Origin: Escherichia coli
GTDB taxonomy: Bacteria; Pseudomonadota; Gammaproteobacteria; Enterobacterales; Enterobacteriaceae
Assembly: GCF_003334335.1 (NCBI RefSeq)
Contig: NZ_QOWQ01000053.1
DNA length: 20,311 nucleotides
Direction: 5' to 3' (one strand)
Below the pieces are notes generated by a model. It ran no database searches. It was not told where the DNA came from and saw only the letters and a list, made by a program, of their open reading frames with translations. A program made the position numbers and the translations under genes. Shown here one piece after another: positions 20,006 through 20,311 of this stretch; the first letter of the stretch is position 1; the number at the start of each line of letters is the position of its first letter.

Positions 20006-20106
20006 CTTTGACAGGGGTGAAGGAGGCCGTTGCATCTCCTTTAATTATCATTGCCAGATTATTTCCTCGACCTGAGTATTCTTTATTTAGCCATAGTTTT
20101 GTAGCA

Positions 20107-20132
20107 AGGGGCTGGAGCGCCCCTCTTTTTTT
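20107..20132 (+). terminator. Second plus-strand terminator-like hairpin with U-tract
   Basis: AGGGGC (20107-20112), loop TGGAGC, GCCCCT (20119-20124), followed by CTTTTTTT. It sits immediately 3' (in plus coordinates) of the stop of the partial minus-strand gene. Confidence 0.5.
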
Positions 20133-20311
20133 CACCTGTCAGCCATGCCGACCTTATACGCCAGTATAGCTTCCGCATCACCCAGCGCTTCAATCTCTTT
20201 TTTCATCGTGCGCTGTCTGACATGAATTTCCAGACCTTTGGTAAACATCGCCTGCTCTGCAGCAGCACTCAGAGCAATCAGTGTTTCAGCGTCCATCGGT
20301 ACGTCATTATT
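20132..20311 (-). CDS. Partial ORF (C-terminal 59 codons) of an unidentified prophage or island protein; N-terminus lies beyond the window
   Basis: Minus-strand frame open from the window edge to TGA (reverse complement at 20132-20134): ...NNDVPMDAETLIALSAAAEQAMFTKGLEIHVRQRTMKKEIEALGDAEAILAYKVGMADR. Not in the ORF track because it lacks a start inside the window. No family assigned. Confidence 0.4.
   Translation of the reverse strand, partial: NNDVPMDAETLIALSAAAEQAMFTKGLEIHVRQRTMKKEIEALGDAEAILAYKVGMADR

Follow-up and report, generated by a model that had tools for sequence, protein, structure and literature searches.

Rho-independent terminators located at convergent junctions, some of them bidirectional, consist of a G/C hairpin and a U-tract placed where opposed transcription meets. 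In phage lambda the tI/sib element, beyond attP, is a leftward-facing terminator that ends transcription running in the int direction, at the late-gene end of the prophage. Here we describe the end of a stretch of 20,311 nucleotides from Escherichia coli (contig NZ_QOWQ01000053.1 of assembly GCF_003334335.1; this whole stretch is called the window), where a plus-strand hairpin with a U-tract, T2, abuts the stop of tfa, a minus-strand gene of the tail-fibre-assembly type. Although this is far from certain, T2 is probably a boundary terminator of the tfa module, which would stop leftward or read-in transcription before it reaches the late operon of a lambdoid prophage.

T2 shares with the convergent-junction terminators its G/C hairpin and U-tract at a place where two opposed directions of transcription meet. 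It differs from them, as do most of its lambdoid relatives, in being polar: the U-tract is antisense to tfa only, and both neighbouring genes are co-directional with tfa. True bidirectional versions, with an A-run before the hairpin and a T-run after it, are found at the tfa homologues GER2, L024, L082 and L083. With tI/sib, T2 has in common its leftward orientation at the late-gene end of a prophage, but it lies ~3.1 kb from the attachment junction, behind the terminator of a dinI-like gene and a cassette carrying an eib gene.

The P-EibA prophage of ECOR-9 (AF151091; orf-401, orf-191A, eibA, orf-156A, orf-60A) has the same gene order as the window and is 97-98% identical in DNA over the matched parts, the last 1 kb of the window included. 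It differs by the absence of positions 19797-19907, and the stem-loops of its record do not include T2 or the preceding hairpin, T1. Lambdoid morons, in the description of Juhala et al. (2000) as cited in PMC4104026, are preceded by a promoter and followed by a terminator, both oriented like the gene. The eib gene is alike in that it is AT-rich, inserted among phage genes, and equipped with an upstream region of its own and a terminator after it; it differs by extra terminators ahead of the moron, in the opposite direction. AsxR and AgvB are convergent anti-sRNA (small RNA) pairs of 51-60 nt at the pR' moron site of prophages of enterohaemorrhagic E. coli (EHEC) (PMC4104026). They resemble the present locus as short terminator-ended units directed against late transcription at a cargo boundary, but the window shows no match to them in sequence or structure, occupies another site of the phage map, and any RNA made there is hypothetical. 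The Pas sRNAs were rejected as counterparts, being located near Q and the lysis genes and not at a tfa-eib site.

The preliminary description of this DNA had reported two plus-strand terminators about 100 bp apart, the second ending at the stop of a partial minus-strand open reading frame (ORF), with no plus-strand gene between them. Direct reading of the sequence bears out the second hairpin, its U-tract and its direction, the same as that of T1 (Table 1). The stem of T2 pairs A20107-C20112 with G20119-T20124 (AGGGGC/GCCCCT) around the loop TGGAGC, and is followed by C20125 and seven Ts (20126-20132). The last T, base 20132, also belongs to the stop TGA of the minus-strand ORF (complement of 20134-20132), exactly as had been proposed. 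In T1 the arms GGGGAG (19978-19983) and CTCCCC (19990-19995) are followed by AG and six Ts (19998-20003). The second terminator is indeed close to the first, with a measured distance of 129 nt between stem starts. Both terminators of the description stand, but they are not the only ones. H3, a weaker hairpin, lies between them; its folding energy is unexceptional on its own (z +0.38 vs shuffles), and EC2-type relatives have in its place a perfect stem of 8 bp with AAATTTTT after it. T0, degenerate in the window, is intact (GGGGAG-N8-CTCCCC; TGGGGAGCGTGCCGTCTCCCCG TTTTTT) in the UPEC-245U, KY204 and SCU-104 variants. As for a gene between T1 and T2, no conserved plus-strand ORF and no PHROG match was found there, in agreement with the description.

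Table 1. Position, strand and basis of the features of the window discussed in the text.
Feature	Position	Strand	Basis or remark
T2, intrinsic-terminator-like hairpin + C + T7, facing the 3' end of tfa	20107-20132	+	sequence reading, consensus scan
T1, intrinsic-terminator-like hairpin GGGGAG-CACGCA-CTCCCC + AG + T6	19978-20003	+	same direction as T2
H3, weaker hairpin between T1 and T2	20018-20043	+	consensus scan, variant alignment
T0, degenerate GGGGAG...CTCCCC + T-run terminator copy; right arm + T5 left	~19810-19834	+	variant alignment
tfa 3' end, last 59 codons + stop; gene leaves the window	20132-20311	-	DUF4376 tail-fibre-assembly-type, ORF-191A family
tfa-eib spacer, AT-rich, 795 bp	19337-20131		travels with eibA-type genes
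17-nt direct repeat TACGAAAATTCTGTATT, copy 1	19713-19729	+	exact repeat, family D2
17-nt direct repeat TACGAAAATTCTGTATT, copy 2	19889-19905	+	exact repeat, spacing 176 nt
eib-like gene, 357 aa, YadA C-terminal domain, immunoglobulin-binding family; cargo (moron)	18263-19336	-	near-identical records
dinI-like gene + own plus-strand terminator	17238-17527	+	nearest annotated plus-strand unit upstream of T0-T2

T1 and T2 each have the stem of an intrinsic terminator, i.e. 6 bp of which 5 are G-C, with a 6-nt loop and a folding energy of -11.6 kcal/mol, which for T1 is exceptional relative to shuffled sequences (z -2.8). A U-tract directly 3' of the stem, as in an intrinsic terminator, exists on the plus strand only (C and T7 for T2, AG and T6 for T1). 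On the minus strand no T-run follows T1 or T2 and an A-run precedes the hairpin instead; the sequence after the hairpin reads TGCTACAAAAC for T2 and GAGAGCATGA for T1, unlike a bidirectional terminator. T1 and T2 are polar, not bidirectional.

A consensus scan of positions 18000-20311 returned 5 terminator-like sites, vs 2.1 +/- 1.5 in shuffled sequences; T1, T2 and H3 are among its sites, all three on the plus strand. Using our own scanner with the same rules as the consensus-scan tool, the tfa-eib spacer (801 nt counted) contained three antisense-facing sites and no sense-facing one, and none of 200 mononucleotide shuffles reached three. The same one-sidedness (antisense/sense) appears in the other tfa-eib spacers: 1/0 in P-EibC, 2/0 in L052 and L047, 4/0 in the UPEC-245U type. 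The energy of T2 alone is not exceptional; the case for hairpins beyond chance relies on this orientation and on the comparison of related loci.

For this comparison we surveyed 80 viral contigs encoding Tfa relatives, extended each match to its stop and read the sequence that follows; the first 60 nt past the stops fell into 27 clusters. A G/C hairpin is present 8-20 nt past the stop of nearly every tfa homologue, and in the lambdoid ones an A-run precedes it, usually with no T-run after. An antisense-facing terminator lies within 60 nt of the tfa stop in 18 of the 27 clusters and is the only orientation in 13, while a sense-facing terminator occurs in 9, five of these being bidirectional. 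Among other ORF ends of the same loci, used as a control, 22 of 253 were "reverse only" (Fisher p ~1e-6; the control ORFs, however, lack annotation, and the 27 clusters are related, hence not fully independent).

The position at the tfa stop is conserved while the hairpin itself changes. Its sequences are diverse (AGGGGC, GGGAAA, GGGGGA, GGGGAGC, GGCTGC, GGGGGTGA), and different stems occur between identical flanks: GGGAAA/TTTCCC in P-EibC, GGGGGA/TCCCCC in the EHEC type and GGGG/CCCC in L043. Conversely, the stem of T2 is kept in the EC2 type despite changes in the loop, in the C-terminus of tfa and in the sequence to either side. Past the hairpin, the next gene reads in the direction of tfa where it is eib, the 563-aa ORF or the DUF1353-like ORF; a convergent gene follows only in P2-like relatives and at one prophage end. 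With the next gene co-directional in three contexts, the site is therefore not simply the convergent terminator of a neighbour.

Phage 1720a-02, in which the dinI-tfa interval is without an eib cassette, gives the clearest layout. Its record is permuted: the early-left genes leave it at the right end and resume at the left into int and a dinI homologue, so that all of them point at tfa. The dinI homologue and its promoter are 78% identical to those of the window, and the sole convincing terminator past dinI is the hairpin abutting the tfa stop. By this layout the site would plainly end the leftward int-dinI unit where the late operon meets it. Phage phiSTEC1589-Stx1c, for its part, carries before tfa an unrelated tandem pair of antisense-facing terminators whose flanking genes are all on the other strand.

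The frame that ends at T2 is open from position 20311 to its TGA, and the window carries residues 134-192 only. The preliminary description could not assign it and supposed that it might be the last structural or accessory gene before the cargo of an element. The full 192-aa protein, available in the 99.9% identical phage PhiR5_1 (L002 3121-3699), matches Pfam PF14301 (DUF4376) over residues 72-182 (E 7.9e-20) and phrog_1141, "tail fiber protein" (E 2.4e-78); records annotate the homologous gene as tail fiber assembly protein, DUF4376 protein or ORF-191A of P-EibA. In loci L001, L002 (PhiR5_1) and L003 it directly follows a stf-like gene, behind J and lom. By homology and position tfa is the last structural gene of the lambdoid prophage, with eib coming next, and the supposition is upheld in its structural form. 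The role of Tfa as a fibre-assembly chaperone is putative, its name coming from annotation and position.

Over its last 1 kb the window is 99.5-99.9% identical to PhiR5_1 and to prophages in the chromosomes of a few E. coli strains. A plasmid origin was rejected: PLSDB gave no match to this 1 kb, and the locus is a chromosomal prophage. Read along the minus strand, the genes are J-lom-stf-tfa-[795 bp]-eib-orf156-orf60, all genes from tfa through orf60 being on this strand, while the dinI-like gene is on the plus strand beside the attachment site. The map of PhiR5_1 is of the lambda type (int, xis, exo-bet-gam, cI, cro, O, P, Q, lysis, terminase ... J, lom, stf, tfa, eib, dinI); therefore the plus strand of the window corresponds to the leftward (pL/int/dinI) direction of the phage.

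Placed on this map, T2, with T1, H3 and the decayed T0 ahead of it, would act as Rho-independent terminators on plus-strand transcription, i.e. leftward and antisense to the late operon. In the circular phage, the early-left operon (pL ... xis, int) could be read through attP into dinI and on, in the plus direction; two promoters of the lysogen, that of the interrupted mlrA and the SOS-inducible one of dinI, would also point plus-ward. The terminators would then stop polymerases that escape the dinI terminator, or that started spuriously in the AT-rich eib region, before they enter tfa and stf head-on. In eib phages the eib-orf156-orf60 cassette lies between dinI and tfa, with the terminator attached to tfa still in place, and T1, H3 and T0 would be extra, partly decaying barriers of the eibA-type spacer. 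As the spacer has no sense-facing terminator, late transcription probably continues into eib. We infer from this arrangement that termination takes place in vivo, that plus-strand transcripts would come from the sources above and that the phage may benefit from stopping them. Protection of the minus-strand gene from read-in transcription had been raised in the preliminary description as one of two options; the comparative data lean to it, through the conserved position at tfa stops and through 1720a-02, where this is the first convincing terminator after int-dinI. The other option, that T2 ends a second short plus-strand transcript, is less favoured.

Several points weigh against this assignment. 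The energy of T2 alone is ordinary (z -0.87; matched by 43 of 200 shuffles), and dinI already has a good terminator of its own. Transcription from pL modified by N, if the phage uses it, would ignore intrinsic terminators. From the dinI terminator to T2 no convincing plus-strand promoter was found, the best candidate matching 9 of 12 positions at 19601-19629, so that the transcription to be stopped is hypothetical here. Lambda has no such terminator after tfa, none being present between tfa and ea47; its Tfa is of a different family, and it was rejected as a comparator. Lastly, T0 is decayed in the window, the stem of T1 is weakened by a G>T change in the EC2 type, and the 111-bp segment 19797-19907 is deleted in P-EibA (AF151091) and in 2013C-3033; the upstream members of the array are thus dispensable.

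The spacer between tfa and eib was compared through an alignment of ten variants. It is found only with eib genes, in 27-32 of 5426 complete E. coli genomes and at up to six places per genome, and the T1-T2 segment is 99% identical across 70 places in 27 genomes. Other types of tfa-eib spacer measure 364-498 bp and have one or two sites, the eibA type having an extra ~300-440 bp. Within the deleted 111-bp segment lie a TATAAT (19802-19807), T0 in its decayed form and copy 2 of the 17-nt box. A tandem unit of 176 bp was considered and rejected: only the box and the hairpin recur, Tandem Repeats Finder returned nothing, and the remainder is not significantly similar. Control by LexA through the 17-nt box was also rejected on direct reading, since the box contains CTGTAT without a second half-site. 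Only the eib-proximal ~170 bp of the spacer are common to other eib types, and eibG was expressed from a plasmid with 168 bp of upstream sequence (bioRxiv 10.64898/2025.12.25.695649). From this conserved block and the sufficiency of 168 bp for eibG, T1 and T2 are probably outside the eib promoter and leader.

The alternative that unannotated short sRNAs of the eib moron, read from the plus strand, have their 3' ends at T1, T2 or both is doubtful, yet it accounts for several features. Two to four terminators face the same direction with no ORF between them. In the T1-T2 segment, H3 forms a 5' hairpin that an AU-rich linker joins to a terminator, and the stems are kept in the EC2 type while loops and linker diverge. 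An exact copy of the 17-nt box stands ~90-100 nt ahead of each GGGGAG-type hairpin, T0 and T1; in EHEC-type loci ~33 nt past the hairpin travel with it; and convergent sRNAs are documented at a moron boundary (Tree et al. 2014, PMC4104026). The searches for such RNAs speak the other way. The covariance models of Rfam 15 gave, at E <= 10, nothing in 16700-20311 except two chance matches, and no sRNA match (AsxR, AgvB, Esr41, STnc100 and sok included) at the tfa-downstream sites of 20 related loci or in locus L096. No promoter is conserved: the UPEC-245U type has lost the TATAAT, and in P-EibA it falls in the deletion. A larger structured RNA was rejected, whole-segment folds being no better than those of shuffles (z +0.25, -0.67, -1.35), and RNAalifold found no compensatory pairs or covariation among the few haplotypes. 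Moreover, other tfa-eib spacers keep a terminator with almost no space for an RNA. A wider version of this idea would make the tfa-cargo junction of DUF4376-type lambdoid prophages a second conserved antisense-sRNA site besides the pR' moron site, with T0, T1, T2 and the 17-nt box marking two or three tandem sRNA genes in eibA-type prophages; we regard it as an unlikely conjecture. If true, sRNAs travelling with eib, a virulence cargo, might modulate eib or targets in the host.

Coding explanations of the spacer fared no better. The four plus-strand ORFs and the minus-strand ORFs of 55 aa and 41 aa had no PHROG match even at E <= 10, and no conserved plus-strand ORF was found between or before the hairpins, indels disrupting the small ORFs in relatives. 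We accordingly rejected a small gene, whether on the plus strand or overlapping: it has no family, its frames are indel-broken, and in the EC2 type the 55-aa ORF lacks its GTGA overlap start. A programmed frameshift at A-AAA-AAG was discarded too, the run being past the in-frame TGA and 1-2 nt from the hairpin, and absent in other tfa types. In the record of PhiR5_1, two coding sequences called "hypothetical protein" (L002 2957-3124 and 2701-2826, corresponding to 19968-20135 and 19712-19837 of the window, minus strand) lie over T1/T2 and T0 respectively. These 55-aa and 41-aa products are probably over-annotation and not genes. An ORF of 24 codons (MIVLFALFLCSHSVAYKKAPLSHV, 19732-19806, plus strand) starts just past the first 17-nt box with no evident Shine-Dalgarno sequence, and the UPEC-245U type has a 22-codon ORF with the same PLSHV ending in a different N-terminal frame. 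The 24-codon ORF is probably due to chance, a small hydrophobic peptide being the alternative.

T0, T1 and H3 might also be relic terminators left by earlier plus-strand cassettes, e.g. of the dinI type, as cargo was exchanged repeatedly at this hotspot, with no selected role now and T2 alone belonging to the tfa module. We hold this to be rather unlikely. The dinI terminator (17498-17517, followed by T6) has the same stem GGGGAG/CTCCCC as T1, and T1 hairpin and tail are a near-match to it; but the score of 29 is borderline relative to a shuffle maximum of 27, and the likeness is confined to the hairpin. For the same reason a decayed dinI-like gene upstream of T1 was rejected, and no protein-level trace of a lost plus-strand gene exists. 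The decay of T0, the T1 mutation of the EC2 type, the tolerated 111-bp deletion and the restriction of the extra ~300-440 bp to eibA-type loci all fit relics. Against them stand the near-identity of the T1-T2 segment over its 70 places, though recent spread may explain it, and the second, unrelated tandem pair of phiSTEC1589-Stx1c.

A role of the hairpins in the sense (minus-strand) RNA is improbable, whether in stabilising the 3' end of the late mRNA, in its processing or within a long eib leader. The minus-strand folds are slightly more stable (-13.5 and -13.6 kcal/mol; z -3.4 and -2.6), and a hairpin 10-20 nt or less past the stop of nearly every tfa homologue would suit such a role. However, the feature conserved besides the stem is the 5' A-run, i.e. 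the complement of a terminator U-tract, and to our knowledge an A-run 5' of the hairpin has no role in stabiliser hairpins. The eib promoter, probably within ~170 bp of the start codon, would also leave T1 and T2 outside the eib leader. That the hairpins arose by chance in an AT-rich spacer, as their short 6-bp stems and the shuffles matching the T2 energy could suggest, is very improbable given the orientation bias and shuffle tests, the recurrence after tfa in unrelated sequence and the stem kept with a new loop.

Past T2 the cargo was identified as well. The Eib protein matches phrog_9547 (E 1e-150) and, under the curated cut-off, NCBIfam YadA_autotrans (E 8e-18). The gene has the traits of a moron: an insert between phage genes, of deviant GC content, with its own terminator-like site at 18229-18213 (minus strand). 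The 5' half of eib and the spacer have 30-40% GC (33-46% for the spacer) vs ~50% in the flanks. A promoter-like TTGAAC-17-GATAAT lies ahead of eib at 19382-19354 (minus strand), and AF151091 annotates stem-loops just upstream and downstream of eibA. One of the annotated stem-loops is a perfect 11-nt inverted repeat in the window, GAAATTCCGAA-N16-TTCGGAATTTC (19440-19477), ~100 nt upstream of the eib start; AT-rich palindromes occur at the same place ahead of eibC, eibD and eibE. This inverted repeat could be the site of a regulator. In the same region, tblastn against a one-sequence database gave a weak match to the C-terminal 30 residues of the DinI of the window (19390-19485, minus strand; 41% over 32 aa, E 0.004, internal stop), which is either chance or a tiny dinI-like relic upstream of eib.

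At the other side of the cassette, two CTG-N10-CAG motifs of the LexA-box pattern (17178-17193 and 17207-17222, plus strand) overlap and follow a promoter-like TTGACA-18-AAAAAT before dinI, which suggests that the prophage dinI-like gene may be under SOS control. Past dinI, the window runs on into btsS, btsR and yeh genes. An ORF at 16946-17014 (plus strand) reads MALYTIGEVALLCDINPVTLRA and then stops; the Prokaryotic Genome Annotation Pipeline calls a truncated pseudogene there in strain SW070917. This ORF looks like mlrA (yehV) interrupted by the prophage after its first 22 codons. The prophage thus appears to be inserted in mlrA/yehV. A terminator-like hairpin (16995-17015, plus strand) is located right at the prophage junction, near 17010.

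Other elements were encountered in the window and in related loci. At 6484-6559 (plus strand) there is a full-length match to OrzO-P, an antitoxin RNA from the zor-orz family of type I toxin-antitoxin modules (101 bits for a gathering threshold of 60, E 4e-16). Rfam sok matches of 60-63 bits, just over gathering, occur ~2.2 kb upstream of tfa in L052 (692-841), L035 (683-841) and L023 (1050-1207), all on the plus strand, which suggests hok/sok-type modules near lom/stf in these three prophage loci. In PhiR5_1 (L095 ~20834-20890), a stop, an A-run and the G/C hairpin TAACCGGCAAAAAAAGCCGCCAGCGGC, with no T-run after it, follow a 662-aa CP-933V-like ORF downstream of Q. This antisense-facing, terminator-like site is at the pR' cargo site where convergent sRNAs were reported (Tree et al. 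2014, PMC4104026).

Literature searches on eib, terminators of prophages, tail-fibre sRNAs and late or antisense transcription in lambda turned up nothing on the terminator described here. T2 is a predicted intrinsic terminator of an ordinary type, by its stem and U-tract, which occupies a consistent position at the tfa stop of related prophages, and it opens no new mechanism unless the hairpins do end sRNAs. T1 and T2 are candidate short, orientation-specific terminators. The ORF left unassigned and the cargo are now identified, and the end of the window falls in the known eib-carrying lambdoid prophages at mlrA/yehV. A signal that seemed oddly placed, a terminator facing the stop of a gene and having no gene of its own, turns out to be recurrent at the tail-fibre end of these prophages. 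The tfa stop and its hairpin can be used as a landmark of the moron boundary, and the terminator at the tfa stop probably marks where leftward and late transcription stay apart as cargo cassettes turn over.

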